Below the pieces are notes generated by a model that was not told the origin of the DNA, made no database searches, and saw only the letters and a program-made list of their open reading frames with translations. A stretch of DNA of 64,000 nt, from assembly GCF_036365525.1 (NCBI RefSeq), contig NC_090379.1, positions 12,047,659 through 12,111,658 of the forward strand, read 5' to 3'. Shown one piece after another: positions 4,097 to 60,574 of the stretch. This DNA comes from Heterodontus francisci. Taxonomy: Eukaryota. Both the position numbers and the translations under genes were made by a program. Each line of letters opens with the position of its first letter. Position 1 is the first letter of the stretch.

Positions 4097-4475
4097 GGGA
4101 GACGGTCACTGAACTAGTAATCCAGTGGCCTAGACTAATGCCCTGGGGGCATTGGTTCAGATCCCACCATGGCAGTTGGTGAAATTTAAATTCATTAATA
4201 AAAATCTGGCATTGATAGCTAGTCTTTTTTTTATTATTCTTTCATGGGATGTGTCGCTGGCAAGGCCAGCATTTGTTGCCTATCCCTAATTGCCCTTGAC
4301 AACTGAGTGTCTTGCTAGGCCATTTCAGAGGGCAGTTAAGAGTCAACCACATTGCTGTGGGTCTGAAGTCACATGTAGGCCAGACCAGGTAAGGACGGCA
4401 GGTATCCTTCCCTAAAGGACATTAGTGAGCCAGATGGGTTTTTGCAACAATCAATAATAGTTTCATGTCACCAGT
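4097..4475. mobile_element. tRNA-derived SINE with the head on + and the body/tail inverted
   Basis: 4097-4225 matches the head of the SINE at 21423. 4226-4475 is the reverse complement of the rest of that SINE. Confidence 0.75.
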
Positions 4476-8748: not shown

Positions 8749-11700
8749 TTATACAGCACAGAAACAGGCCCTTCGGCCCATCGTGTCTGTGCCGGCCATA
8801 CAGCACCCAACTATTCCAATCCCATATTCTGCACTTGGCCCGTAGCCCTGTATGCTATGGCGTTTCAAGTGCTCATCTAAATACTTCTCAAATGTTCTGA
8901 GGGTTCCTGCCTCCAACTCCTCTTCAGGCAGTGCGTTCCACTTTCCAACCATCCTCTGGGTGAAAAAATGTTTCCTCAAATCCCCCTAAACCTCCTGCCC
9001 CTTACCCTAAATCTATACACCCTGGTTCTTGACTCCTCCACTAAGAACAAAGAAAATTACAGCACAGGAACAGGCCCTTCGGCCCTCCAAGCCTACGCCG
9101 ATCCAAATCCTCTATCTAAACCTGTCGCCTATTTTCTAAGGGTCTGTATCTCTTTACTTCCTGCCCATTCATGTATCTGTCTAGATACATCTTAAAAGAC
9201 GCTATCGTGCCCGCGTCTACCACCTCCGCTGGCAATGCGTTCCATGCACCCACCACCCTCTGCGTAAAGAACTTTCCACGCATAACCCCCCTAAACTTTT
9301 CCCCTTTCACTTTGAACTCGTGTCCCCTTGTAATTGAATCCCCCACTCTGGGGGATTCTAAGGGAAAAAGTTTCCTCCTATCTAACCTATCACTGCCCCT
9401 CATAATCTTGTACACCTCAATCATGTCCCCGTTCAGCCTTCTCTGCTCCAAGGAAAACAACCCCAACCTATCCAGTCTGTCTTCATAGCTGAAATGCTCC
9501 AGCCCAGGCAACATACTGGTGAATCTCCTCTGCACCCTCTCCTGTGCAATCACATCCTTCCTATAGTGTGGTGCCCAGAACTGTACACAGTACTTCAGCT
9601 GTGGCCTAACTAGCATTTTATATATCTCCATCATAACCTCCCTGCTCTTATATTCTGTGCCTTGGCTAATAAAGGCAATTGTCCCATATGCCTTTCTAAC
9701 CACCTTATCGACATGTGCTGCTGCCTTCAGTGATCTATGGACAAGTACACCAAGGTCCTTCTGACTTTCTGTTCTTCCTAGGGTCCTACCATCCATTGTG
9801 TATTCCCTTGCCTTGTTAGTCCTCCCTAAATGCATTACCTCACACTTTTCAGGATTAAATTCCATTTGCCACTGCTCCGCCCATCTAACCAGCCCATCTA
9901 TATCTCCCTGTAATCTAAGGCTTTCCTCCTCATTATTTACAACACCAATTTTTGTGTCAAATGTGAACTTATTGATCATACCTCCTATATTCACATCTAA
10001 GCACCGATCGCTGTGGTACACCACTGGTCACAAGCTTCCAATCGTAAAAACAGCCCTCAACCATTACCCTCTGCCTCCTGCCAATAAGCCAGTTTTGGAT
10101 CCAATTTGCCAAATTTCGCTGGATCACATGGGCTCTTACCTTCTTAACCAATCTCCCATGCGGGACCTTATCAAAAGCCTTACTGAAATCCATGTATACT
10201 ACATCTACTGCTTTACCCTCATCGACACATCAAGTTACCTCCTCGAAAAATTCAATCAAATTAGTTAGATGCGATCTTCCCCTGACAAAGCCATGCTGAC
10301 TATCCCTGATTAATCCCTGCCTCTCCAAGTGGAGATTAATCCTGTCCCTCAGAATGTTTTCCAATATTTTCCCAACTACTGATGTTAGACTCGCCGACCT
10401 GTAATTACCTGGTTTATCCCTACTACCCTTCTTGAATAATTGTACCACATTCGCTGTCTTCCAGTCCTCTGGTACCTCTCCTGTGGCCAGAGAGGATTTG
10501 AAAATTTGTGTCAAAGCCCCTGCTATCTTCTCCCTTGCCTCACATAACAGCCTGGGATACATCTCATCTGGGCCTGAGGATTTATCTACTTTTAAGCCCA
10601 CTAAACCAGCTAATATTTCCTCCCTTTCAATGCTAATATGTTCAAGTATATCACAATCCCCCTCCCTGATCTCTACACCTACATCGTCCTTCTCCATAGT
10701 GAACACCGATGAAAAGTAATCATTTAAAACCTCACCTATGTCCTCCGGCTCCACACAAAGATTGCCACGTTGGTCCCTAATGGGCCCTACTCTTTCCCTG
10801 GTTATCCTCTTACCCTTAATATACTTATAAAATGCCTTGGGATTTTCCTTTACCTTGCCCGCCAGTGTTTTTTCATGCCCCCTCTTCGCTCTCCTAATTA
10901 CTTTTTTTAAGTGCCATCCTACACTTTCTATACTCCTCTAGTACCTCTGCTGTTTTCAGCACTTGGGATCTGCCGTAAGCCTCCTTTTTTTCCCCTGATT
11001 CAAATCTCTATATCCCTTGACATCCAGGGTTCTCTGGGCCTGTTAGTCCTACCCTTCACCTTAATGGGTACATGTTGGCGCTGAACTCTCACTATTTCCT
11101 CTTTGAATGACTCCCTCTGATGAGATGTAGATTTTCCTACAAGTAGCTGCTCCCAGTCCACTTTGGTCAGATCCTGTTTTATCATATTGAAATCGGCCTT
11201 CCCCCAATTCAGTACCTTTATTTCTGGTCCATCTTTGTCCTTTTCCATAACTACCTTAAATCTTATAGCGTTATGGTCACTATCCCCGAAATGTTCCCCC
11301 ACTGACACTTGTACCACTTGACCGGCTTCATTCCCTAGGATTAGGTCCAGTACTGCCCCTTCCCTTGTAGGACTTTCTATATACTGGCTCAAAAAGCTCT
11401 CCTGTATGAATTTTAAGAATTCCGCCCCTTTTAAGCCTTTAGCACTAAGACTATCCCAGTTAATATTGGGGAAGTTGAAATTCCCTACTATTATTACCCT
11501 ATTATTTTTAGACCTCTCTGAGATTTGCCTACATATCTGCTCCTCTATCTCTTCCTGACTGTTTGGAGGCCTGTAGTAGACACCCAGCCAAGTTATTGCC
11601 CCCTTTTTGTTTTTAAGTTCTACCCAAATGGCCTCATTTGAGGAACCTTCTAAGATATCATCCCCCCTTACTGCAGTAATTGACTCGTTGATCAAAAGTG

Positions 11701-11956
11701 CAATGCCACCTCCACTTTTATCTCCGCCCCTGTTGCGCCTGAAGATTCTATACCCTGGAATTTTGAGCTGCCAGTCCTGTCCCTCCCTCAACCATGTCTC
11801 TTTGATAGCAATAATATCATGTTCCCATGTGCTAATCAATGCCCTCAATTCATCTGCCTTACTAGTAAGACTTCTTGCATTGAAATAGATGCAATCCAAC
11901 CTTGCATTTTTCCCTTGTGCCTTACCAGGTCTATATTTGCTCTGCCTTCCAGGCAC
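8749..11956 (-). pseudogene. CR1 ORF2 (APE endonuclease plus reverse transcriptase), frameshifted
   Basis: Motifs YFNARSL, ETWL, GNFNFP, SDHNAI (EN) and QHGFVRGRS, DFSKAFDKVPH, SGVPQ, DTKIG (RT). Confidence 0.92.
9046..9357 (-). mobile_element. 5'-truncated young CR1 (family B) nested in the host CR1 3' end
   Basis: TSD CTAAG at 9041-9045 and 9358-9362. Nearly identical to about 14865-15177. Confidence 0.88.
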
Positions 11957-13931
11957 TTTCTGTTCTATATTACCCCCTACTGTACCTCCACTCTGTATCT
12001 CATCCCCCTGCCATATTAGTTTAAACCCCCTGCAACAGAACTAGCAAATCTCCCAGCAAGGATGCTTGTCCCATTCCGGTTCAGGTGCAACCCGTCCAAC
12101 TTGTACAGGTCCCACCTTTGCCAGAAACAGACCCAGTGATCCAGGAAACTAAAGCCCTCCCTCCTGCACCATCTCCTCAGCCCTGCATTCATCTGCTCTA
12201 TCCTCCTATTTCTAAACTCACTAGCATGTGGCACTGGGAGTAATCCATAGATTACAACCTTAGAGGTCCTGCTTCTTAATCTGCTACCTAGCTCCCTAAA
12301 TTCTTGTCGCAAGACCGCATCCTTTTTTCTACCTATGTCGTTGGTACCAATGTGTACCACGACCTCAGGCTGCTCATCCTCCCCCTTCAGAAGGTCCTGC
12401 AGCCGCTCCGTGACATCCTTGACCCTAGCACCAGGAAGGCAACATACCATCCTGGAGTCACATTTGCGGCCACAGAAACATCTATCTGTATCCCTTATGA
12501 TAGAATCCCCTATCGCTATAGCTCTTCCACTCCTTTTCTCCTCTGCTGTGCAGCAGAGCCATCCTTGGTGCACGGACCTGGCTGTTGCTGCTTTCCCCTG
12601 GGAGGTCATCCCCCCCCAAACAGTATCCAAAGCGGTATATCTGCTTGAGAGGGGGATGGCCACAGGAGACTCCTGTACTACCTGCCTGAGCCTACTACTC
12701 CGCCTGGTGGTTTTTTATTAATTCATGGGATGTGGGCGTCGCTGGCCAGGCCAGCATTTATTGCTCATCCCGAATTGCCCTTGAGGAGGTGGTGGTGAGC
12801 GGCCTTCTTGAACCGCTGCAGTCCATGTGGGGTAGGTACACCCACAGTGCTATTAGGAAGGGAGTTCCAGGATTTTGACCCAATGACAGTGAAGGAACGG
12901 TGATATAGTTCCAAGTCAGGATGGAGCACAGGTCTTCAGTACTATTGCCGGAATATCGTCGGGGCCCATAGCCTTTGCAGTATCCAGTGCCTTCAGTCAT
13001 TTCTTGATATCATGCGGAGTGAATTGAATTGGCTGAAGTCTGGCATCTGTGATGCTGGGGATTTCAGGAGGAGGCCGAGATGGATCATCAGCTCGGCACT
13101 TCTGGCTGAAGATTGTTGCAAATGCTTAAGCCTTATCTTTCGCACTGATGTGCTGGACTCCCCCATCATTGAGGATGGGGATATTTGTGGAGCCACCTCC
13201 TCCAGTTAGTTGTTTAATTGTCCACCACCATTCACGACTGGATGTGGCAGGACTGCTGAGCTTAGATCTGATTCGTTGGTTATGGGACGCTTAGCTTTAT
13301 TGCATGCTGCTTATGCAGTTTGGCACGCAGATAGTCCTGTGTTGTAGCTTCACCAGGTTGACACCTCATTTTGAGGTATGCCTGGTGCTGCTCCTGGCAT
13401 GCTTTCCTGCACTCTTCATTGAACCAGGGTTGGTCTCCTGGCTCGATGGTAATGGTAGAGTGGGGGATATGCCGGGCCATGAGGTACAGATTGTGGTTGA
13501 GTACAATTCTGCTGTTGCTGATGGCCCACAGTGCCTCATGGGTGCCCAGTTTTGCATTGCTAGATCTGTTCGAAAACTATCCCATTTTGCATGGTGGTAG
13601 TGCCACACAACACGAAGGAGGGTATCCTCAATGTGAAGGCGGGACCTCGTCTCCACAATGACTGTGCGGTGGTCACTCCTACCAATACTGTCATGGGCAG
13701 ATGCATCTGCAGCAAGCAGATTGGTGAGGGCGAGGTCAAGTATGTTTTTCCCTCTTGTTGGTTCCCTCACCACCTGCCACATACCCAGTCTAGCAGATAT
13801 GTCCTTTAGGACTCGGCTAGCTCGGTCGTTAGTGGTGCTACCGAGCCACTCTTGGTGATGGACATTGAAGTCCCCCACCCAGAGTACGTTCTGTGCCCTT
13901 GTCACCCTCAGTGCTTCCTCCAGGTGCTGTT

Positions 13932-14765
13932 CAAAGAACAGTACAGCACAGGAACAGGCCATTCGGCCCTCCAAGCCTGCGCCGATCATGATGCCTGTCT
14001 GAACGAAAACCTTCTGCACTTCCGGGGTCCGTATCCCTCTATTCCCATCCTATTCATGTATTTGTCAAGATGCCTCTTAAACGTCGCTATCATACCTGCT
14101 TCCACCACCTCCCCCGGCAGCACGTTCCAGGCACTCACCACCCTCTCTAAAAAAAAAAAAAACTTGCCTCGCACATCCCCTCTAAACTTTGCCCTTCGCA
14201 CCTTAAACCTATGTCCCCTAGTAACTGACTCTTCCACCCTGGGAAAAAGCTTCTGACCATCCACTCTGTCCATGCCACTCATAAATTTGTAAACCTCTAT
14301 CATGTCGCCCCTCCACCTCCGTCGTTCCAGTGAAAACAATCCAACCTCTCCTCATAGCTAATAGCCTCCAGACCAGGCAAAATCTTGGTAAACCTCTTCT
14401 GTACCCTCTCCAAAGCCTCCACGTCCTTCTGATAGTGTGGTGACCAGAATTGTACTCAATATTCTAAGTGTGGCCTAACTGAGGTTCTGTTCAGCTGCAG
14501 CATGACTTGCCAATTTTTATACTCTATGCCCCGACCGATGAAGGCAAGCATGCCATATGCCTTCTTGACTACCTTATCCATCTGTGTTGCCACTTTCAGT
14601 GATCTGTGGACCTGTAAGCCCAGATCTCTCTGCCTGTCAATACTCCTAAGGGTTCTGCCATTTACTGTATACTTCCCACCTGTATTAGACCTTCCAAAAT
14701 GCATTACCTCACATTTGTCCGGATTAAACTCCATTTGCCATTTCTCTGCCCAAGTCTCCGACCGA
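13932..14765 (-). mobile_element. 5'-truncated CR1 LINE nested in the family 2 LINE
   Basis: MEFNPDKCEVMHFG...RPHLEY and FSLERRRWRGDMIEVYK, with a CR1 tail. Confidence 0.9.
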
Positions 14766-14861
14766 TCTCAACATGGAGGAGTACTGACTCATCAGCTGAG
14801 GGAGGGCGGTAGGTGGTAATCAGCAGTAGGTTTCCTTGCCCATGTTTGACCTGATGCCATG

Positions 14862-16690
14862 AACAAAGAACAAAGATAATTACAGCACAGGAACAGGCCC
14901 TTCGGCCCTCCAAGCCTGCGCCGATCCAGATCCTCTCTCTAAACATGTCGCCTATTTTCTAAGGTTCTGTATCTCTTTTCTTCCTGCCCATTCATGTATC
15001 TGTCTAGATACATCTTAAAAGACTCCATCGTGCCCGCATCTACCACCTCCGCTGGCAATGCGTTCCAGGTGCCCACCACCCTCTGCGTAAAGAACTTTCC
15101 ACGCATATCCCCCCTAAACTTTTCCCCTTTCACTTTGAACTCGTGTCCTCTAGTAATTGAAACCCCCACTCTGGGAAAAAGCCTCTTGCTATCCACCCTG
15201 TCTATACCTCTCATGATTTTGTACACCTCAATCAGGTCCCCCCTCAACCTCCGTCTTTCTAATGAAAATAATCCTAATCTGCTCAACCTCTCTTCATAGC
15301 TAGCGCCCTCCATACCAGGCAACATCCTGGTGAACCTCCTCTGCACCCTCTCCAAAGCATCCACATCCTTTTGATAATGTGGCGACCAGAACTGTACGCA
15401 GTATTCCAAATGTGGCCGAACCAAAGTCCTATACAACTGTAACATGACCTGCCAACTCTTGTACTCAATGCCCCGTCCGATGAAGGAAAGCATGCCGTAT
15501 GCCTTCTTGACCACTCTATTTACCTGCGTTGCCACCTTCAGGGAACAGTGGACCTGAACACCCAAATCTCTCTGGACATCAATTTTCCCCAGGACTTTTC
15601 CATTTACTGTATAGTTCACTCTTGAATTGGATCTTCCAAAATGCATCACCTCGCATTTGCCCTGATTGAACTCCATCTGCTATTTCTCTGCCCAACTCTC
15701 CAATCTATCTATATTCTGCTGTATTCTCTGACAGTCCCCTTCACTATCTGCTACTCCACCAATCTTAGTGTCGTCTGCAAATTTGCTAATCAGTCCACCT
15801 ATACTTTCCTCCAAATCATTAATGTATATCACAAACAACAGTGGTCCCAGCACGGATCCCTGTGGAACACCACTGGTCACACGTCTCCATTTTGAGAAAC
15901 TCCCTTCTACTGCTACTCTCTGTCTCCTGTTGCCCAGCCAGTTCTTTATCCATCTAGCTAGTACACCTTGGACCCCAAGCGCCTTCACTTTCTCCATCAG
16001 CCTGCCATGGGGAACCTTATCAAACGCCTTACTGAAGTCCATGTATATGACATCGACAGCCCTTCCCTCATCAATCAACTTTGTCACTTCCTCAAAGAAT
16101 TCTATTAAGTTGGTAAGACATGACCTTCCCTGCACAAAACCATGTTGCCTATCACTGATGAGCCCATTTTCTTCCAAATGGGAATAGATCCTATCCCTCA
16201 GTATCTTCTCCAGCAGCTTCCCTACCACTGACGTCAGGCTCACCGGTCTATAATTACCTGGATTATCCCTGCTACCCTTCTTAAACAAGGGGACAACATT
16301 AGCAATTCTCCAGTCCTCCGGGACCTCACCCGTGTTTAAGGATGCTGCAAAGATATCTGTTAAGGCCCCAGCTATTTCCTCTCTCGCTTCCCTCAGTAAC
16401 CTGGGATAGAACCCATCCGGACCTGGGGACTTGTTCACCTTAATGCCCTTTAGAATACCCAACACTTCCTCCCTCCTTATGCCGACTTGACCTAGAGTAA
16501 TCAAACATCTGTTCCTAACCTCAACATCCGTCATGTCCCTCTCCTCGGTGAATACCGATGCAAAGTACTCGTTTAGAATCTCACCCATTTTCTCTGAGTC
16601 CAAGCATAACATTCCTCCTTTGTCCTTTAGTGGGCCAATCCTTTCTCTAGTTACCCTCTTTCTCCTTATATATGAATAAAAGGCTTTGGG
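14862..16690 (-). mobile_element. Young 5'-truncated CR1 LINE (family B) with an almost intact RT
   Basis: ORFs 16612-15680 and 15676-14939 are separated only by one stop codon. Contains GVPQGSVLGPLLF and FADDTK. Confidence 0.95.
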
Positions 16691-17781
16691 ACTTCATGGG
16701 GTCCATAGTTGATGTTGAGGACTCGCAGGGCAACTCCCTCCCTACTGTATACCACTGTGCCACCACCTCTGCTGGATCTGTCCTGCCGGTGGGACAGGAC
16801 ATATCCGGGGATGGTGATGGCAGAGTCTGGGATATTGTCTGTCAGGTATGATTCCGTGAGTATGACTATATCAGGCTGTTGTTTGAGTAGTCTGTGGGAC
16901 AGCTCTCCCAACTTTGGCACAAGCCCCCAGATGTTAGTAAGGAGGACTTTGCAAGGTTGACAGGGCTGGGTTTGCCGTTGTTGTTTCCGGTGCCTAGGTC
17001 GATGCCGGATGGTCCATCCGGTTTCATTCCTTTTTATTGACTTCGTAACGGTTAGATACAACTGAGTGGCTTGCTAGACCATTTCAGAAGGCAGCATGTA
17101 AGAGTCAACCACATTGCTGTGGGTCTGGAGTCACATGTAGACCAGACCAGGTAAGGACAGCAGATTTCCTTCCCTGAAGGACATTAGTGAACCAGATGGG
17201 TTTTTACAACAATCGACAATGGTTTCATGGCCATCATTAGACTAGCTTTTTTTAATTCCAGATTTATTAATTGAATTCAAATTCCACCTTCTGGGATTTG
17301 AACCCATGTCCCCTGAGCAATACCCTGGGTCTCTGGGTTACTAGTCCAGTGAGAATACTACTACGCCACCACCTCCCACATCCCTTTTCTGCCTGTGCTG
17401 CCATTACCTGCGTTGTGACCACCTCTTTAAATGTGCCATCCACGACGTTCTCAGCATCACAGATGCTCCACAGTGAATCCACCCGCAGCTCTAGCTCCGT
17501 AATGCGTGTAGTCAGTAGCTGCAGATGGATGCCTTTCTTGCACACATGATCATCAGGGACATTGGAAGCATCCCTGATTTCCCACATAGTGCAGGAAGAG
17601 CATACCACAGGGCTGAGCTCCCCTGCCATGACTTACCTTTAAATTAATTTAGTTACTCCCTTTAAAAAATACTAATTACACTAGGGGTCTTGTCTGCTCC
17701 AAACACTACCCAGTACAGTCTAAAGTCCTTAATAAATTACTCTAATTTAAGTAGTACTACTCACCTTATCAGTTTTTTAAT

Positions 17782-21422: not shown

Positions 21423-21834
21423 GGGAGATGGTGGCGTAGTGGTAATGTCACTGAACTAGTAATCCAGAGGCCTGGGGTAATGCCCTGGGGACACGGGTTC
21501 AAATCCCACCACGGCAGCTGGTGGAATTTAAATTCAATGAATTAATTTTTTAAAATCTGGAATTGAAAGCTAATCTCAGTAATGGTGCCATGAAACTATC
21601 AACAATTGTCGTAAAAACCCATCTGGTTCACTAGTGTCCTTTAGGGAAGGAAATCTGCCGTCCTTACCTGGCCTGGCCTACATGTGACTTCAGACCCACA
21701 GCAATGTAGTTGATTCTTAACTACCTTCTGAAATGGCCGAGCAAGCCACTCAGTTGTCAAGGGTAATTCGGGATGGGCAACAAATACTGGCCTTGCCAGC
21801 AATACCCACATCCCATGAAGGAATAAAAAAAAAA
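21423..21834 (+). mobile_element. Full-length tRNA-derived SINE sharing its head/body and tail with the family 2 LINE
   Basis: A box TGGCGTAGTGG at 21432-21442, B box GGTTCAAATCC at 21496-21506, LINE-type tail and poly-A. Confidence 0.9.
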
Positions 21835-23364: not shown

Positions 23365-23705
23365 TTTTTTTCATTCATTCATTCGTGGGTTGTGGGCATC
23401 GCTGGCAAAGGAGGCATTTATTGCCCATCCCCATTTGCCCTTGAGAAGGTGGTGGTGAGCTGCCTTCTTGAACTGCTGCAGTCACTATGGTGTAGGAGCA
23501 CCCACAAGTACTGTTAGGGAGGGACTTACAGGCTTTTGACTCAGCAACAGTGAAAGAACGACGATATAGTTCCAAGTCAGGATGGTGTGACTTGGAGCGG
23601 AACTTGCAAGTGGTGATGTTCCGATGCGTTTGCTGTCCTTATCCTTCTAGCTATTTGAGGTTGCGAATTTGGAAGGTGCTAATGAAGGAGCCTTGGCGAG
23701 TTGTT
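23365..23705 (-). mobile_element. Family 2 LINE 3' fragment
   Basis: Matches the 3' end at 47200-47490. Confidence 0.8.
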
Positions 23706-24294
23706 TGAAGTGCTTTGGAGAGTGTTCAGTGCACAAAAGTGCCGCATAAGTGAAAATTCTTTCTTTGTTTTCTGCTGCTATGTCCTTCCAGCCGCTATTG
23801 CATATTTTCCGATTATTTGTCTTAATTGTCCCTGTACGTAAATCTCTGAGGGCCCAGCTATCCGAAAGAATCACTGCTTTAGTCACTGCCTTCCCATTTC
23901 AATACAGTCCAAGTAAACCCATCATGCTGCCAAGTTTTTAACAGTATTAATGATAAACTCAGTATTCTTTCAGATCTCTTGATGCATTGCCTGCTAAGTG
24001 GCCTTTACTGTCCTCCTCCTAAAATATCATTGTGAGCCTGAATCCTGTCCTGAATGTTGGGGCTTACTGACAGCTGTTTCCTCTAACAATTCTGCAGCTA
24101 AAATTCTCTGCAGTCTTTGAAAACAGAACTCTAACAAATTAAGGGAGAGAGAAATCTGATTCTTGGACAAGGTAGATAAAGAATGAAAATGGAAGGGAAA
24201 TAAAGAATTGAAGGGTTATGAAACAAAAAATAAGTATCTAAATCCAATTTCCATGCCCAACACAGACACACAAGCGCATACTCTCACTCTCACG

Positions 24295-24562
24295 CAAATA
24301 CATGGGAACACCACCACCTGCAAGTTCCCCTCCAAGTCACAAGCCATCCTGACTTGGAACTATATCGCCGTTCCTTCACTGTCGCTGGGCCAAAATCCTG
24401 GAGCTGCCTTCCTAACAGCACTGTGGGCATACCTACCCCAAATGGACTGCAGCGGTTCAAGAAGGCAGCTCACCACCACCTTCTCAAGGGCAATTAGGGA
24501 TGGGCAATAAATGCTGGCCTGGCCAGCATCGCCCACATCCCATGAATGAATAAAAAAAAAAG
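24295..24562 (+). mobile_element. Family 2 LINE 3' fragment
   Basis: Matches the family 3' end and ends in poly-A. Confidence 0.85.
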
Positions 24563-27169: not shown

Positions 27170-28851
27170 GTTCTTGTTCTGTTCTTTGGCCTCCTTGTCT
27201 CAAGAGACAATGGGTATGCGCCTGGAGGTGGTCAATGGTTTGTGAAGCAATGCCTGGAGTGGCTATAAAGGCCAATTCTAGAGTGACAGACTCTTCCACA
27301 GGTGCTGCAGATAAAATTGGTTGTCGGGGCTGTTGCACAGTTGGCTCTCTCCTTGCGCTTCTGTCTTTTTTCCTGCCAACTGCTAAGTCTCTTCGACTCG
27401 CCACACTTTAGCCTCGCCTTTATGGCTGCCCGCCAGCTCTGGCGATCGCTGGCAACTGACTTCCACGACTTGTGATCAGTGGCACAGGACTTCATGTCGC
27501 GTTTGCAGACGTCTTTAAAGTGGAGACATGGATGGCCGGTGGGTCTGATACCAGTGACGAGCTCGCAGTACAATGTGTCCTTGGGGATCCTGCCATCTTC
27601 CATGCAGCTCACATGGCCAAGCCATCCCAAGCGCCGCTGGCTCTGTTGGGTGTATATGCTGGGGATGTTGGCCGCCTCGAGAATTTCTGCGTTGGAGATA
27701 TGGTCCTGCCACTTGATGCCAAGGATTCTCCAGAGGCAGCAAAGATGGAATGAATTGAGACGACGCTCTTGGCTATCATACGTTGTCCAGGCCTCGCTGC
27801 CGTAGAGCAAGGTACTGAGGACACAAGCTCGATACACTCGGACTTTTGTGTTCCGCGTCAGTGCGCCATTTTCCCACAGTCCAGTCTGGCCAGTTGGCCA
27901 GTCTGGACATAGCAGTGGAAGCCTTTCCCATGCGCTTGTTGATTTCTGCATCTAGAGACAGGTTACAGGTGATAGTTGAGCCTAGGTAGGTGAACTCTTG
28001 AACCACTTCCAGAGCGTGGTCGCCGATATTGATGGATGGAGCATTTCTGACATCCTGTCCCATGATCATTTTCTTGAGGCTGATGGTTAGGCCAAATTCG
28101 TTGCAGGCAGCCGCAATCCTGTTGATGAGTCTCTGTAGACACTCTTCAGTGTGAGATGTTAATGCAGCATCGTCAGCAAAGAAGAGTTCCCTGATGAGGA
28201 CTTTCTGTACTTTGGTCTTTGCTCTTAGACGGGCAAGGTTGAACAACCTGCCCCCTGATCTTGTGTGGAGGAAAATTCCTTCTTCTGAAGACTTGAACGC
28301 ATGTGAGAGCAGCAGGGAGAAGAAGATACCAAACTGTGTAGGTGCGAGAACACAGCCCTGTCTGATGAGGTGCCGCTATGCTGAATTGTGCCTTTCATAT
28401 TGTCATGGAATGAGGTGATGATACTTAGTCGCTTTGGTGGACATCCGATCTTTTCTAGTAGTCTGAAGAGACCACGTCTGCTGACAAGGTCAAAGGCTTT
28501 GGTGAGATCTGTGAAAGCAACGTAGAGGGGCATCTGTTGTGCACGGCATTTCTCCTGTAGCTGGCGAAGGGAGAACAGCATGTCAATGGTGGATCTCTCT
28601 GCTCGAAAGCCACACTGTGCCTCAGGGTAGACACGCTCAGCCAGCTTCTGGAGCCTGTTTAAAGCGACTTGAGCGAAGACTTTCCCCACTATGCTGAGCA
28701 GGGAGATTCCACGGTAGTTGTTACAGTCACCGCAGTCAGCCATGTTCTTATAGAGGGTGATGATATTGGCATCGCGCATGTCCTGTGGTACTGCTCCCTC
28801 GTCCCAGCACATGCAAAGCAGTTCGTAGAGTGCTGAAAGTATAGCAGGCCA
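27170..28851 (-). mobile_element. 5'-truncated RTE-clade LINE
   Basis: NYRGISLLSIVGK, PEAQCGFR, DLTKAFD, FNLARLRAKTKV, FADDAAL, YGSEAWT and a C-terminal CxxC...HxxH, all typical of RTE ORFs. Few frameshifts. Confidence 0.9.
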
Positions 28852-30879
28852 TATACTCAACTAAATGCATTTTTATGTAATGTGGGAATTAATACTTCCC
28901 TGAAGGTGCAAGTCTTTTGTTGCAGGCTCATGGGATTGCAGTGATGATCAGAGAACATCAGTGAACTAAGCAGATTACGCGGGTAGTGATCAAAAGTAGT
29001 GTTCAAGGGCTATTCCGTGAAATGCTCAATTTGGGCAAGGGCATCATGTCTAAGAAGGACAGATCTAAAAATGCACAAAGTACTGTAGTTACTCAAACTT
29101 CTTGTTGGAACCTCATGGCGGCAGACAAAATTTCAATAGTCCTATGGAAGAATTTTGATCTAACTGCCCTGGACCTGTTAGTATATCAACACTCAAGGCG
29201 CCCCGTCTCACATTGAGGTGTAGTGGTCATTCATTAGCTTTAAATCCAGCTCACAGCCATTAAAATAACTTTGTAGGACATTTTGTTGCCCGTCTGGCAA
29301 TGATGTATAGTATTTACAGCCCAGAAACAGGCCATTTGACCCAGTAGGTCCATGCTGGTGTTTATGCTCCACATGAGCCTCCTCCCATCTCTCTTCGTCC
29401 AACCTCTTGAACATAACCTTCTATTCCTTTCTCCTTCATGTGTTTAGCTAGCTTCCCTTAAATGCAGCTACACTAGTTGCCTCAACTGCTTCTTGTTGTA
29501 GCGAGTTCCACAGTCTAACCAAAGTTTTCATTAACCGGAACTATTACTGCTCAAATCTACGCATTATCATCTTCATGCCTAAAGTAATTGGAATTTTTTG
29601 ACTAGAGGACAAAGGGCCACAGTGGGACAATGATGACGAAGAGGAGGTACTTAACCACACACATTTTGTTTTTAAATTGCATTTATGGAAAACCTTATCA
29701 CATCCTCAGAACCTCCCAAAAAACTTTGGAACCAGATGATTATTTTTTGAAGTGAAGTCACTGCTGTTAGTTAGATAAATGCAGCAGCAAACTTGCTTAC
29801 TCCCAGGTCCCACAAACAGCGAAGGAATAAATGATCAGATAATCTGTATGTTGGCGGTGGTGTTTGAAAGATGAACCTTGGCATGGGGTACTCCCTGCTC
29901 TGCTTCAAATAGTGCTGTGGGATTAGGACTGTTCATGTGGAGGATTTGTTGTGTGTTGTCCATCTTAATTTGGGTGAGCCCAGTCATCAGCTGGCACCTA
30001 AAAAGTCTGTTGCCAGTCAGTTGTCTTTTCAGCGTGTTAAAAGTCTGCAGCTCAAACTCACTGAAGTGCAACACAAAAATAAGGCAGCTACCGGCAATGA
30101 CCGTCTTCAGATCAAACGCACCTGTCTTTGGTTCCCCTGGAACGTTACAGGTAGATCTCCATTATTCTAGAAAGCACACCTTGCAGATGAAGTCCACTCC
30201 CCAAGTGGGAAATGCTACTCTATGACCAGAAACACAAAAAGTCTTGGCAGCTGTGGAGTGTGATCTGTACCTTCGCTCATTAGACTAATAAGATCTTGTC
30301 ACTCCTGAGCTACCCAGTTAGCTTCACTTTGTGGGAGATATTTATTGCCGCTCTGACATATCCTTTCTGCCTGTCTACCTGTTTGAAAAACAGGACTATT
30401 CCGACAAATGAGCTCAATTTCATTATTGTACAAGGCCTTCATAAATTTGCCCTGTTTATTAATTCCCGAGTCTGACATAAGTAGCAGCGACAGAGAGAAA
30501 CCTAGAAAAATTAATATTGGTTCTTATTCATCACAGAAGACTTGACTGTGACGTATGTATGCACATACTGAAATGAAACAGCATGCAGGTATTGAGTGGA
30601 ATTAATTGGCACAAAGATACCTGGATGTCTTTGGGACATTTGTAGAAGTGAGACTGATTTATTGTGCCTGAAGTGAAAGGCTGCAACCTGAGGGGACAAT
30701 ACTTTTTAACCCAATTAAAGGAGGTAACCTGCATTTATATGCAGAGCGGGAGCCTGTTTTGCCCATTGTGTGAGGACCTACACAATGTGACATGAGTGAA
30801 CAGCAAAATATTTCAGATGCTATAAATCATCACCTGAAACACACAAGTTCCCAAACCAGAAATAGGCAGTAACCGAGGG

Positions 30880-33714: not shown

Positions 33715-34140
33715 TTCATATAGCAACTTGCATGACCTCAAGTGCTGTGCAACCAATGACGCACTTTTGAAGTGTAGTCACTCTTGTAATGTAGAAAACG
33801 TGGCAACCATTTCCAGCAAACAGCAATGAGATAAATGACCAGACAATCTATTTTTAGTGATGTTAGTTGAGGGTAAATGTTGGCCAGGACACTTAGGTGA
33901 ACTCCCTTGCTCTTCAAAATAGTGCCGTGGAATTGTTTACATCCACCTGAGGGGGCAATTGGGACCTCAGTTTGTCACATCCGAAAGATGGCACCTCTAA
34001 CAGTGCAGCACTCCTTCAGTACTGCTCTTGGGAGTGGCAGCTTAGATTGTGTGCTCAAGTCTCTGGAGTGGGTCTTGAACCTACAACCTTCTGACTCAGA
34101 AAGTGCTACCCACTGAGCCATGGCTGACACAGCCAGCTGA
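33715..34140 (-). mobile_element. Deu-domain SINE (SacSINE1-like), near full length
   Basis: tRNA-like head on - (B-box-like GGTTCAAGACC), Deu-like core GAGTGCTGCACTGT..GAGGTGCC.TCTTTCGGATG and the shared tail. Confidence 0.7.
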
Positions 34141-44790: not shown

Positions 44791-44949
44791 TAGACATTTG
44801 TCTCCTTGCTGTTGTGGGACCTTGCAGAGTTCACATTGGTTGCTGCATTTGCCTACAAAATGACAGTGACTACACTTCAAAAGTAATTTATTAGCTACTT
44901 TAGGATACAAGTGGGCTTATTTAGCATATTGGTACAAATGCACTATAAA

Positions 44950-47490
44950 TGAAGAATGTGGGAGAGCATGCCAGGAGCAGCACCAGGTATACCTAAAAAT
45001 GAGATGTCAGCCTGGTGAAGCTACAACACAGGACTACATGGATGCCAAACAGCGGAAGCAGCATGCGGTAGACAGAGCTAAGCGATCCCACAACCGTCGG
45101 ATCAGATCAAAGATCTGCAGTGCTGCCATATCCAGCCTTGAATAGTGTGGACAATTAAACAACTAACGGGAAGAGGAGGCTACAAATATCCCATTCTCAA
45201 TGATGGGGGAGCCCAGCACATCAGTGCAAAAGGAAAGACTGAAGCATTTTGGACCATCTTCAGCCAGAAATACCAAATGGATGATCCATCTTGGCCTCCT
45301 CCTGGGGTCCCCAGTATCACAGATGCCAGACTTCAGCCAATCCAGTTCACTCCATGTGATATCAAGAAACGGCTGAAGACACTGGATACTGCAAGGCTAT
45401 GGCCCCTGATAGCATTCTGTCAACAGTACTGAAGACTTATGCTCCATAACTAGCCACGCCTCTAGCCAAGCTGAACCAGTACAGCTACAACACAGGCATC
45501 TACCCGACAATGTGGAAAATTGCCCAGGTATGTCCTATCCACGAAAACCAGGGAAAATCCAATCCGGCCATTTACCATCCCATCAGTCTACTCTCGATCA
45601 TCAGCAAACTGATGGAAGGTGTCGCTGACAGTGCTATCAAGCACCACTTAAACAGCAATAACCTGCTCACCGATACTCCTTTTTTAAAAATTCATTCATG
45701 GGATGTGGGTGACGCTGGCCAGGCCAGCATTTATTGCCCATCCCTCATTGCCCTTGAGAAGGTGGTGGTGAGCTGCCTTCTTGAACCGCTGCAGTCCATG
45801 TGGGGTAGGTACACCCACAGTGCTGTTAGGAAGGGAGTTCCAGGATTTTGACCCAGCGACAGTGAAGTCAGGATGGTGTGTGACTTGGAGGGGAACCTGC
45901 AAGTGGTGGTGTTCCCATGCATTTGCTGCCCTTGTCCTTCTAGTTGGTAGAGGTCGTGGGTTTGGAAGGTGCTGTCTAAGGAGCCTTGGTGCGTTGCTGC
46001 AGTGCATCTTGTAGATGGTGCACACTGCTGCCACTGTGCGTCGGTGGTGGAGGGAGTGAATGTTTGTAGATGGGGTGCCAATCAATCGGGCTGCTTTAAC
46101 CTGCAAAGTGTCAAGCTTCTTGAGTGTTGGAGTTGCACCCATCCAAGAAAGTGGAGAGTATTCCATCACGCTCCTGACTTGTGCCTTGTAGATGGTGGAC
46201 AGGCTTTGGGGAGTCAGGAGGTGAGTCACTTGCCGCAGAATTCCTAGCTAAAGTCATGAGGTTGACCTGATTACAGCCTTGGGCCAGACATGGACAAAGG
46301 AGCTGAACTCAAGGTGAGATGAGAGTGTTTACCCTAGATATCAAGGCAGTATTTGACTGAGTATGGCAACAAGGGGCCCTAACAAAACTGGAGTCAGTGG
46401 GAATCAGTTGAAAACTCTTCACTGGTTGGAGTCGTACCTTGCACAAAGGAAGATGGTTGTGGTTGTTGGAGATCAATCATCTCAACTCCTGCAATGATGT
46501 TCTGGAGCTTCTCAGGGTAGTGTCTCAGGCCCAACCATCTTCAGCTGCTTCATTAATGACCTTTCCTCCATCATAAGTTCAGAAGTGGTGTTGTTCACTG
46601 ATGATTGCACAGTGTTCAGTACCATTCACAATTCCTCAGATGTTGAAGCAATCTGTGCTAATATACAGCAAGACATGGGCAACTTCAGGCTTGGGCTGAT
46701 AAGTGGCAAGTAAAATTCGTACCACACAAGTGTCAGGCAATGGCAATCACCAATCAGAGAGAAGGAAACCATCTTCTCTTGACATTCAATGGCATTACCA
46801 TCACTGAATCCCACACTAACAACATCCTGGGGGTTACCATTGACCAGAAACTGAACTGGAGCAGCCATATAAATACCGTGGCTACAAGAACAGGTCAAAG
46901 GCTAGGAATCCTGCGGTGAGTAACTCACCTCCTGACTCCCTAAAGCTTGTCCACCTTTTACAAGGCACAAGTCAGGAGTGTGATGGAATACTCTCCACTT
47001 GCCTGGATGGGTGCAGCTCCAACAACACTCAAGAATCTTGACACTTTCCCGGATAAAGCAGCCCGCTTGATTGGCACCCCATCTACAAACATTCACTCCC
47101 TCCACCACCGACGCACAGTGGCAGCAGTGTGTACCATCTACATGATGCACTGCAGCAATGCACCAAGGCTCCTTAGACAGCACCTTCCAAACCCACGACC
47201 TCTACCACCTAGAAGGACAAGGGCAGCAGATGCATGAGAGCACCACCACCTGCAAGTTCCCCTCCAAGCCACACACCATCCTGACTTGGAACTATATTGT
47301 TGTTCCTTCATTGTCGCTGGGTCAAAATCCTAGAACTCCCTTCCTAACACACTGTGGGTGTACCTACCCCACATGGACTGCAGTGGTTCAAGAAGGCAGC
47401 TCACCACCACCTTCTCAAGGGCAACTAGGGATGGGCAATAAATGCAGGCCTAGCCAGCGATGTCCATATCCCAGAAACAAATAAAAAAAA
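44950..47490 (+). mobile_element. 5'-truncated family 2 LINE with an antisense family 2 insert (about 45678-46247)
   Basis: MWKIAQVCPIH...PISLLSIISKLMEG, FTDD and YKAQVRSVMEYSPLAW, with tail and poly-A. Confidence 0.88.
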
Positions 47491-48875
47491 ATTAGGGTAG
47501 ATGAAGGGAATTATGAGAGAAGCTTTTCTGGAGGAATTTAGAACAAGGGGGCACAATCTTAAAATTAGAATGAAATCATTTAGGAGTGAAATCAGGAAGC
47601 ATTTTTTTACAGACAAATCTGGTGGAAAATAGTGGATATCCGGAACTCATTTCTTCCAAAATGCTGTTGATGCGGGGGGTCATTTGAAAATGTCAAGACT
47701 GAGATTGATTTTTTAATTATTCAGTAACAAGGGGAGAACAACACATTGTTCTACTGAACTTCAACTCCACAAAATGTTACAATAGCCTGGAGCACTGCAA
47801 GTTTCCGATCTTGTTGTCTATTGTAGAGCAAAAGCCTCTTCCAATCGTAGTGTCAGTCACCCAGGGTTGTTTGTTGGACTTCCTAGGAAACTTTTAGCAT
47901 CTCTAGCTCACTTCCTTACCTGCGAAGAGAAAGAATTTTTTTTAAATTCAGTTGTTGAATTGGAAAGGTTGTTGTTTTGCAACCAAAAGACATCCAGCAC
48001 TGAGATAGTTAAATAATCAACTTGAACATACGGAGGAAGTAAACACCTTCTGATCAGTGTTCATGCAGATAATTTCTGTGAAACTCTGGCAGCTCCCAGC
48101 TCACCGAGATTTTAGTTTCCTGTATGTGAAAGATGATGTATTCATCAACGAACATTTAAATATCAACCAAAAATACTTTCTTCAGTCCCATTGTGGAGTG
48201 AGTCATAATTCTGCACTTGAAATACAGAATAAATCTGGAAGTGAAGTATTTTACTGGGAAATAAGCCAACATGTGCTTCCAAATCTCTGTGTCCTCGCCC
48301 GCCCCCGCCATTTGTAGCCTCATAACAGCCCTCTGAGATCATTGCTCCTCCAATTCTGGCCTTTTGTGCATACCAGAATTTCTACCTCATCCAATTCCAT
48401 ATCCTACTCCATCCAATCACATCATAGTCAGTCTGATTGAGCAGCCTTGGCGAGCACTTTAGTATCAGCAGAAGCCAAATAGGGTGGCTTCAGTATTGCG
48501 AGTTTTGAGCTGAAGGTTATTTTGGCTCATACAGGACTTGAAATCAGACAGGTAGTTGAGCGCTGTGACAGTCATGGCACAAAGAGTGCAGATGAAAGCT
48601 AGGTGTCAGCATGTAAGTGGACAGTGACTCCTTGTTTGCGTATGATGTTGTCAAGGGACAACAAAAACATAGTAAAACATCCCAAGGTGCTTCACAGGGG
48701 CCTAATCAAATGAAATTTGACACCAAGCCACATGAGATATTACGGCAGATGCTTGGTCACAGAGGTAGGTATTAAGGAGCATCTTAAAGGAGGGGAGAAG
48801 TTTAGGGAGGAAATTTGCATAGCTTAGGGCCCAGGCAGGTGAAAGTACGGCCACGAATAGTGGAGCAATTAAATT

Positions 48876-50529: not shown

Positions 50530-50910
50530 AAAAGACTTGCATTTATACACTGCCATTCACAACCTCAGAACACTGATGTAATATAGGAAAAGCGACAGCC
50601 AATTTGCACGCAACAAGATCCCATGAACAGCAGTGAGGTAAATGAGTTGATCTGTTCTAGTGATGTTGGTTGAGAGAGAAATATTGACCAGGACAATGGG
50701 AAGAATGCCCCTACTCTTCTTTGGGATCTTTAATGTCCATCTGGGAGGGTATAGGCGAGCTCGGTCTAATGTCTCATCCAAAAGATTACCCCTCTGACTT
50801 GCTCAGTACTACACTGGGAGTGTCAGCCTAGATTTTTGTGCTCAGGTCACTGGAGTGGGGCTTGACCTTTCAACCTTCTGACTCAGCGTCAAGCGTGCTA
50901 TCACTCCTTG
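50530..50910 (-). mobile_element. Deu-domain SINE
   Basis: Collinear with 33715-34110. Confidence 0.65.
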
Positions 50911-50939: not shown

Positions 50940-51270
50940 GAGAGATACAGCACTGAAACAGGCCCTTCGGCCCACCAAGTCTGTGCCGACCAACAACCAC
51001 CCATTTATACTAATCCTACATTAATCCCATATTCCCTACCACATCCCCACCATTCTCCTACCACCTACCTACACTAGGGGCAATTTCCAATGGCCAATTT
51101 ACCTATCAACCTGCAAGTCTTTGGCTGTGGGAGGAAACCAGAGCACCCGGCGGAAACCCACGGGATCACAGGGAGAACTTGCAAACTCCACACAGACAGT
51201 ACCCAGAACCAAACCCGGGTCGCTTGAGCTGTGAGGCTGCGGTGCTAACCACTGCACCACTGTGCTGCCC
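50940..51270 (-). mobile_element. HE1-type V-SINE
   Basis: Highly similar to 22300-22610. Confidence 0.85.
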
Positions 51271-56051: not shown

Positions 56052-56308
56052 AAATCTAATGGTGACCGTGAAACCATTGTCAATTGTTGTAAAAACCCAT
56101 CTGGTTCACTAATGTCCTTTAGGGAAGGAAATCTGCCATCCTTACTTGGTCTGGCCTACATGTGATTCCAGACCCACAGCAACGTGCTTGACTCTTAACT
56201 GTTTCTGAAATGGCCTAACAAGTCACTCAGTCATCAAGGGCAATTAGGGATGGGCAACAAATGCAGGCCTAGCGTGCCCATATCCCACAATAACAAATAA
56301 AAAAAAAT
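56052..56308 (+). mobile_element. 5'-truncated copy of the tRNA-derived SINE
   Basis: Matches 21580-21834. A further degraded copy lies at about 59920-60135. Confidence 0.8.
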
Positions 56309-59516: not shown

Positions 59517-60574
59517 GTAAGTGACTTCTTTGTGGTTGTGTTTCTAAACTGATGTTTTATCTTGTAAATTAAACCCTAAGTTGTTCTGCTTAGTTGTATT
59601 TGTATAATCATAGATTAAAAATGGTTTTTGTATCGATGGTTTAAGTATTAATGTTATGTCCATCCAGGTTTCTTTATGTCATTAGAGCCAACATTCCTGT
59701 TGATGTTTCCATCATTAATTTTTATGTGTGCTTTTATAATGGAAAGATCATTATGGCTGCAACGCCACTATTGGTGGAAAAATGGGATTACAGTGTGACA
59801 AGTTTACATTGGCAATCACCATTATAAATGTGCACACAAGAATTTTTAATGGAAATATAGCGTAAGGACAGAATCTATCAATCTGAATTATACCTACATG
59901 CCTAATTCAACGATCTCCACCCTGGGAATTTGAATTCTGTTTTAAAATCTAGAAATAAAAACTTGTATCAAAAAAAGTGAAGCTGTCGGATTGTTGTAAA
60001 AACCCAACTAGTTCACACATGTCTTTTCGGAAAGGAAACCAGCTGTCCTTACCCTTTCTAGCCTATATGTGATTTCAGACCCACACTTAGAGTTGACTAT
60101 TAACTGCCTTTTGGAGTGGCAAGCAAGCCATTCATATATCAAACTGCTAGGATTCAAGAATAAATCGGAGTCACTGATTTAATTATAAATAAGGCTGTAT
60201 GAATTCTGATAATTAGTCATCGTTTGATAGTCTCATTGTCATAGGGCACTGTTGCAAAATTTTTCTTATAAATAAGACAATTGTGGGAGATTCATGAGTT
60301 AACACCAGATATCCTTCAGTTCTAGAGGTTTGTTTTGGGTGAATGGAAATAGCGCAAGACCTTTTGGTTAAGAAATGTTTCCCTTTGAATCTTTGATCTG
60401 CTGGAACTGTACAATCCACATTCTTACAACCCTTTGTGTGAAGAATTAAGTTTCTTGGCTGCACTTTGAACTAGCTTAGTTTGGATTCTAGGATCATTTC
60501 ACCTTGTTCTGGCTTCCCTACTAGAGGAAAAAGTAATTTCCTCTCTAATCTGTTGCAATATTGATGGAGTAACA

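Follow-up and report, generated by a model that had tools for sequence, protein, structure and literature searches.

The SINE and its copies

At position 21423 of the window (the whole 64,000-nt stretch of repeat-rich Heterodontus francisci DNA that was analyzed) begins a full-length SINE composed of a tRNA-like head, a body and a tail of LINE origin (Table 1). The element has the traits of a SINE2: a boxed tRNA-derived head, a 3' tail shared with a LINE, poly-A and multiple dispersed copies. When the SINE was compared with the window by BLASTN, bases 1-335 matched 17377-17058 of the minus strand (80.6% identity, E 3.6e-88), as an earlier note made from the sequence had claimed, and bases 332-412 matched six LINE 3' ends located at 24481 (87.7%, E 4e-24), 47412, 12784, 45760, 23447 and 1309, in keeping with the LINE-tail origin that the note had given to the SINE 3' end. 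The two matches overlap by four bases and leave zero SINE bases unexplained, which bears out the claim that the whole SINE is contained in the LINE. The SINE equals the first 335 plus the last 80 bases of the LINE family, and shows the defining trait of a bipartite LINE derivative in that it consists of the parent's 5' (bases 1-335) and 3' (bases 332-412) ends only.

Table 1 Features of the SINE, the headed LINE family and the neighboring CR1 elements in the window
Feature	Position	Strand	Basis
Full-length SINE, 412 nt: tRNA-like head, body, LINE tail, poly-A	21423..21834	+	BLASTN against the window
SINE tRNA-like head	21423..21520	+	A/B box scan; ARAGORN at lowered threshold only
SINE body, 90.2% identical (202/224 aligned bases) to LINE 5' region; non-Deu	21521..21757	+	Alignment
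SINE tail: final LINE ORF codons, 3' UTR and poly-A (21825-21834)	21758..21834	+	BLASTN, alignment
5'-truncated SINE, body-tail junction near 4299 as in 21423 SINE	4226..4473	-	BLASTN, alignment
5'-truncated SINE, junction at 56235 as in 21423 SINE	56057..56307	+	BLASTN, alignment
Head-only fragment with SINE-type letters	4105..4225	+	BLASTN, alignment
Old body copy (~72%) with weak continuation into LINE spacer, not tail	59931..60170	+	Shuffle scores
5' end of headed LINE: head with A box at 17368 and B box at 17304, body as far as 17058, then spacer and beginning of APE endonuclease	16690..17378	-	PF03372, E 3.6e-5
Next 31 endonuclease codons, between two younger CR1 insertions	14769..14862	-	Frame continuous with flanking pieces
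Remaining endonuclease, linker and start of reverse transcriptase (RT), same copy	12925..13931	-	PF14529, E 7.5e-11
3' end of same LINE copy, after internal deletion at CCA microhomology; poly-A	12707..12924	-	Alignment
CR1 insertion A: younger, 5'-truncated, no target duplication seen	14863..16689	-	
CR1 insertion B: younger, 5'-truncated, 4-nt target duplication	13932..14768	-	
N-terminal part of host CR1 ORF1, matching ~residues 1-84 of P0191, a sawshark homologue	17379..17629	-	
Host CR1 ORF1, C-terminal part and GDSL esterase domain (~residues 85-315 of P0191)	12016..12706	-	
Further family LINE piece supplying RT part	44948..45683	+	
Further family LINE piece supplying RT part	45679..46247	-	
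Further family LINE piece supplying RT part	46300..47491	+	
5'-truncated LINE 3' end	23365..23713	-	
5'-truncated LINE 3' end	24294..24561	+	

A 16-nt piece from the start of the tail was searched through the window at three or fewer mismatches, a cut-off outside which the tail at 1309 falls. Eight matches were obtained: the SINE body lies upstream of three (21758, 4298 on the minus strand and 56235) and the LINE ORF end upstream of the other five. The recurrence of the junction asserted in the earlier note was therefore found, near 4298/4299 (minus strand) and at 56235, the latter carrying two substitutions, but full length is restricted to the 21423 copy. The body ends with GTTGT, followed by CAAGGG in the three copies or by ATC at 17058 (weakly so in the 59931 copy). 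The three junction-bearing SINE copies are 83-90% identical among themselves, and SINE-LINE identity lies in the same range (head 84.9%, 73/86; body 90.2%, 202/224). For the 59931-60170 copy the spacer score was reached by 42 of 1000 shuffles and the tail score by 564 of 1000. No target-site duplication was found around the 21423 SINE. At 4105-4473 the plus-strand head fragment adjoins the poly-A end of the minus-strand truncated SINE, an arrangement that is nearly one SINE with its 3' part inverted and that is owing to either local inversion or insertion of one SINE into another.

In a pattern scan for the Pol III boxes, the SINE head was found to contain an A box (21432-21442) and a B box (21496-21506) 53 nt apart, and the LINE copy has the same 53-nt spacing. 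At a lowered ARAGORN threshold (ps90) the head folds as a cloverleaf with a long variable arm, such as Leu tRNAs have; at the default setting ARAGORN made no tRNA call, and the head of the LINE copy passes the lowered threshold in a different register. Rfam gave no tRNA hit for the head (chance-level hits only, no ribozyme), and the head folds no better than shuffles (z -0.49 and -0.15). Just past the head the full-length SINE has a T6 run (21547-21552), lacking in the LINE copy, which would stop Pol III in this SINE copy. Two further minus-strand A/B box pairs lie at repeat ends near 34120 and 22600, and second copies of these repeats (50626-50886 and 50941-51269) are present; they may represent other tRNA-headed SINE families.

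Several known SINEs were compared with the element. The Deu-SINEs SacSINE1 and LmeSINE1 of sharks and coelacanth are, according to the accessible part of PMC5499810, also abundant, tRNA-headed, of similar length and provided with a LINE-derived tail. Assignment to SacSINE1 or the Deu-SINEs was rejected because neither of two Deu motifs gave a match at three or fewer mismatches and because the body does not resemble the Deu alignment, nor the head that of SacSINE1, as printed in the accessible parts of PMC5499810 and PMC7245038. The central domains of Meta-, UCON3- and CORE-SINEs, judged by eye from printed sequences, showed no likeness to the body. An LF-SINE identity was considered and dropped as a probable misfit. 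The body of the salmonid SlmI SINE may resemble that of the shark SINE. SlmI, the partner of the RSg-1 LINE, is listed as tRNA-Leu-headed in the accessible part of PMC3747384, and is set beside the shark SINE by description only.

A single LINE insertion carries both SINE ends

The earlier note had placed head and tail on separate LINE fragments, but both also flank one single copy, 17378-12707. This is one insertion, with the SINE head at its start and the SINE-shared tail at its end, because the halves of an older CR1 ORF1 (P0191 residues 1-84 and 85-315) flank it and its endonuclease frame is continuous across the CR1 elements. That frame stops at 16690, resumes at 14862-14769 for 31 codons and resumes again at 13931, the gaps being the two CR1 insertions; the peptide that is split in the window runs unbroken through P0040, an independent protein. 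The nested LINE, like the 21423 SINE, showed no target-site duplication. The copy has an in-frame ATG at 17082 with TAG at codon 3. The nest as a whole (9040-17629) has three layers, from which an order of activity follows: the host CR1 came first, the headed LINE second, and last a pair of CR1 insertions of the same orientation 93 nt apart, one of which carries long open frames.

Aligned to P0006, an endonuclease-RT relative of 934 residues, the family pieces in the window cover residues 2-75, 100-456, 360-537, 565-854 and 761-932. The full length of the family is probably about 3.3 kb. At 44948-47491 a plus-strand member of the family is interrupted by a minus-strand copy of the family's 3' end. 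The spacer between body and APE endonuclease is about 100 nt. The LINE has no ORF1, since just 428 nt separate its 5' end from the first endonuclease strand. The family shows the traits of APE-type non-LTR elements, namely an APE endonuclease followed by RT, a 3' stem-loop, poly-A and 5'-truncated copies, but not those of canonical CR1 elements: an ORF1 upstream of ORF2 is absent and the RT stands apart from the window CR1s. The host CR1 with its esterase-bearing ORF1 likewise encodes APE endonuclease and RT, resides in the same genome and has short or no target duplications; unlike the headed LINE it has an ORF1, another tail and abundant T runs, and it is only ~28% identical to the headed-LINE relatives.

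In a tree of 53 sequences rooted on the window CR1s and based on a 167-residue stretch, the LINE RT was separate from these CR1s, and its sister group (support 0.995) included Branchiostoma P0004, catfish P0024 and metagenome proteins. A frameshifted LINE at 27232-28860 (minus strand), the protein of which we take to be RTE-like, was used as a control. The headed-LINE RT is unlike that copy and groups with the amphioxus/catfish/metagenome clade. CR1-Zenon elements have been reported from whale shark (10.1101/443036) and from bivalves (PMC10294476, PMC11481361), in the accessible parts of these sources. A stem-loop fold was obtained for both LINE tails (z -2.25 and -2.47) and less clearly for the tail of the SINE (z -0.98); alignment of the tails gave a different, weak consensus fold in which one of ten pairs co-varied.

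The headed LINE is a multi-copy family

About half or more of the words of the stretch 16690-17400 are common to runs of four organisms. Contigs of four runs, one per organism, were aligned to it at 80% likeness, which gave 90,001-162,383 records per run. In all four runs the summed contig depth was 1.7e5-7.5e5 over the spacer (16992-17053), of order 1e5-4e6 over endonuclease and head, and reached its peak over the body; contig depth is not copy number, and the short contigs restrict bridging. Depth falls sharply beyond 17377, where the loose ends are diverse (agreement 0.33-0.34). Among the 32 pieces listed, one (X5 record 16) bridges the junction with 31 bases on each side, and changes at 17044, 17048 and 17054 were found in at least 121-128 contigs. 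Eleven positions were chosen among 40 listed (four in the endonuclease, two in the spacer, two in the body and three in the head). At these the alternative letter had a share of 1-36% of the depth for organism A but of 71-98% for the other three organisms, the window's letter being dominant in organism A only. Given this joint shift at the chosen positions, head and ORF have spread together as a lineage-specific subfamily. At the three positions in the head, both SINE heads of the window have the alternative letters. In each of the four runs, two to six contigs contain a joint from 16953 or 16957 to 17099. Spacer-skipping joints (16953-17057, about 100 nt lost) occur in the runs, and the whale shark model P0045 is equally shortened; perhaps there is a short-spacer subfamily.

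Three whale shark gene models (P0038, P0039 and P0045) fuse the body translation to the endonuclease. P0039, and only P0039, starts from the ATG within the final 25 nt of the body and continues uninterrupted into the endonuclease. The close protein relatives of the family are from whale shark, horn shark, sawshark and white shark. Taken with the nested single copy and the contigs of all four runs, the whale shark models exclude a LINE lacking the SINE head and body, and we are virtually certain that the headed LINE is a real multi-copy element. The observation is thus better supported than it was from the first reading.

Five shark models of ordinary genes (P0025, P0031, P0033, P0036 and P0037) contain translated pieces of the LINE 3' end, by either exonisation or mis-prediction. 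Pattern scans of viral and metagenome contigs gave no match to the LINE-type junction, and no relative of the LINE endonuclease was found among viral contigs; the ESM Atlas contributed the endonuclease family only. Small word shares were seen in coral and fish-gut RNA runs and were not used as evidence.

Direction of descent

The earlier note had offered two directions, internal deletion of a tRNA-headed LINE to give the SINE or gain of the SINE 5' part by the LINE. The first is the more probable, and the two are compatible in that the LINE gained its head earlier at some time. The SINE probably arose by internal deletion of the LINE, since no SINE base is an orphan, the breakpoints fall at both ORF ends and TCAA is found at both. 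The 5' breakpoint lies some eight codons downstream of the candidate ORF start, the 3' breakpoint some four codons short of the stop; the TCAA match requires a 2-nt slip and the three-run majority letter at 17054. The family does produce microhomology deletions, as at 12925 (CCA). In runs X9 and X7, loose ends at 17094 (agreement 0.54-0.55) look like the tail start attached to the body about 30 nt earlier than in the window SINEs, and may mark a second SINE form with its junction there.

The alternative is that the SINE is the older element and that a 5'-truncated LINE RNA acquired its head and body by template switching. We searched metagenome loci of related LINEs and found head and body absent from all 79 (nhmmer best E 2) and a tRNA in none of the 60 scanned, which indicates that the head was gained secondarily. 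In the accessible text of PMC5499810 and PMC5786205 the accepted route for SINE parts is template switching and module exchange, and the several-fold greater contig depth of the body over the spacer also agrees with capture. However, capture requires the switch to have hit, by chance and to within a few bases, the border between body and tail of the SINE itself. Moreover, most of the metagenome loci are just 28-40% identical to the LINE and the close ones lack a 5' end, and the depletion of T runs over the whole ORF (below) suggests a long stay behind the head. We therefore consider capture rather unlikely.

T-run depletion of the sense strand

Runs of four or more T residues terminate vertebrate Pol III transcription. 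Hence, if Pol III reads the LINE from its head, the ~3-kb sense strand must avoid such runs. The earlier note did not contain this observation. In 6025 nt of family pieces, a set that counts homologous stretches more than once, there were three T4 runs versus 9.8 expected (6/1000 shuffles) and no T5 run; two of the three T4 runs are absent from homologous copies, and A4, C4 and G4 were at their expected counts. The window CR1 controls had 49 T4 runs in 11,685 nt, 18 of these being T5 or longer.

On a non-redundant tile (3248 nt) TTT occurred 11 times versus 33.5 expected (0/500 shuffles), a ratio of 0.33, the antisense ratio being 0.88. The same ratio was 1.35-1.48 for three CR1 controls and had a median of 1.12 and a minimum of 0.58 for 76 related loci, so that the LINE was below every one of the 76. 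These 76 were tested out of 79, one (L004) having been omitted for its patchy match and two falling under the 1.5-kb cut, and only two of the loci in this DNA-level test (L001, 0.83; L014, 0.88) are fairly close relatives, both without 5' ends. With protein and codon usage fixed, TTT was still depleted (8 versus 16.7, 3/1000), whereas AAA, CCC and GGG were normal. The T4 counts were not significant on the non-redundant tile (2 versus 5.7, 46/500) or with protein and codon usage fixed (2 versus 2.9, 414/1000). A dinucleotide-preserving shuffle likewise did not show T4 depletion (4 versus 6.2, 51/200, the count including a neighboring poly-A run), as expected of a shuffle that retains TT counts.

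The depletion agrees with what a Pol III transcript should show, and on balance we lean toward Pol III transcription of the LINE. ORF2p alone, and not ORF1p, is required by the Pol III transcripts of the L1/Alu system (accessible part of PMC2666806), and the missing ORF1 of the shark LINE fits a Pol III reading for this reason. The competing explanation accepts the headed LINE as real but assigns its RNA to Pol II, through read-through or a promoter in the body, with the boxes as passengers and the paucity of T runs owing to avoidance of splice or polyadenylation signals or to codon habit. The well-studied LINEs are all taken to be Pol II transcripts or Pol I co-transcripts (accessible part of PMC5786205), translation of an uncapped 3-kb Pol III RNA demands a special route, the T4 tests by themselves are weak and Phe is only modestly lower than in relatives (19 versus 25 of 940 aligned columns). 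Against this, the depletion is strand-specific, is T-specific among homopolymers, persists when codon usage is fixed, is stronger than in all 76 relatives and is opposite to that of the CR1s of the same genome, and both boxes are retained in the LINE copy. A Pol II origin thus seems to us unlikely.

Discussion

Our overall reading, which we favor with some reserve, is that a tRNA-headed single-ORF LINE, probably transcribed by Pol III, shed a SINE by internal deletion at a TCAA microhomology. In this LINE a tRNA-derived head bearing both boxes precedes a ~240-nt body and a single ORF for APE endonuclease and RT; it has no ORF1. RNA polymerase III would transcribe it from the internal promoter, and selection would purge T runs, the Pol III stop signal, from the sense strand. 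Translation of the uncapped RNA would begin at, or close to, the ATG that lies within the final 25 nt of the body, and the protein would bind the 3' stem-loop and copy the RNA into a nicked site. A SINE would be born when copying skipped from the tail to the body end at the TCAA microhomology, such that the ORF was lost and the promoter and recognition tail were kept. Chance juxtaposition, just once, of a 3'-truncated SINE upstream of a LINE fragment could appeal to the window having only one clear head-to-endonuclease copy, but is refuted by the single insertion in the split ORF1, the many contigs in all four runs and the whale shark models, and is extremely improbable.

Bipartite derivatives are reported only for RTE, Ingi, Vingi and R2 in the accessible part of PMC5786205. 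The same text shows that the claim of the earlier note that usual SINE/LINE pairs share the tail only was too strong, since RTE and Vingi also have SINEs that share the 5' part; the unusual feature of the shark pair is that the LINE includes the tRNA head itself. As described there, Bov-A/Bov-tA from Bov-B, RIME from Ingi and the Vingi derivatives likewise consist of LINE 5' and 3' ends with the ORF deleted, and the parents lack an ORF1 or do not need it. In the Bov-B, Ingi and Vingi derivatives, however, the tRNA head was added after the LINE deletion (accessible part of PMC5786205), whereas in the shark LINE it is already on the coding element. The closest cases of carriage by a LINE are RTE-1_DAn, which contains tRNA-like sequence, and Ingi-3_AC, which has a SINE-like piece in its 5' UTR; these belong to other clades, and in their passing mentions in that part of PMC5786205 neither a whole derived SINE nor a Pol III signature is reported. 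Searches of the open-licence literature gave no description of the headed LINE, and the accessible part of the PMC4824008 supplement gave no match; a curated entry in a repeat database such as Repbase or Dfam may exist.

More tentatively, and short of what we would assert, the LINE could be called an "autonomous SINE": a high-copy coding element with an end-to-end Pol III transcript, a 2.8-kb ORF rewritten to avoid terminators, uncapped translation with the SINE body as leader and ORF1 dropped, that repeatedly sheds SINEs. In the textbook division Pol II serves the coding LINEs and Pol III the non-coding SINEs. If Pol III makes the 3-kb RNA, it would be a natural example of a long Pol III transcript that encodes a protein.

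Where SINE bodies come from is treated as an open question in the accessible part of PMC5786205. A LINE that holds the whole SINE directly supplies the source of one SINE body beyond those of RTE and Vingi, and the route here, in which the LINE gains a head and the ORF is then lost, differs from the published route, in which the ORF is lost and the head then added. For shark repeat annotation, the shared 335 nt would be divided between SINE and LINE labels. If the autonomous-SINE reading is true, the shark LINE would be a living intermediate that explains the source of some SINE bodies.
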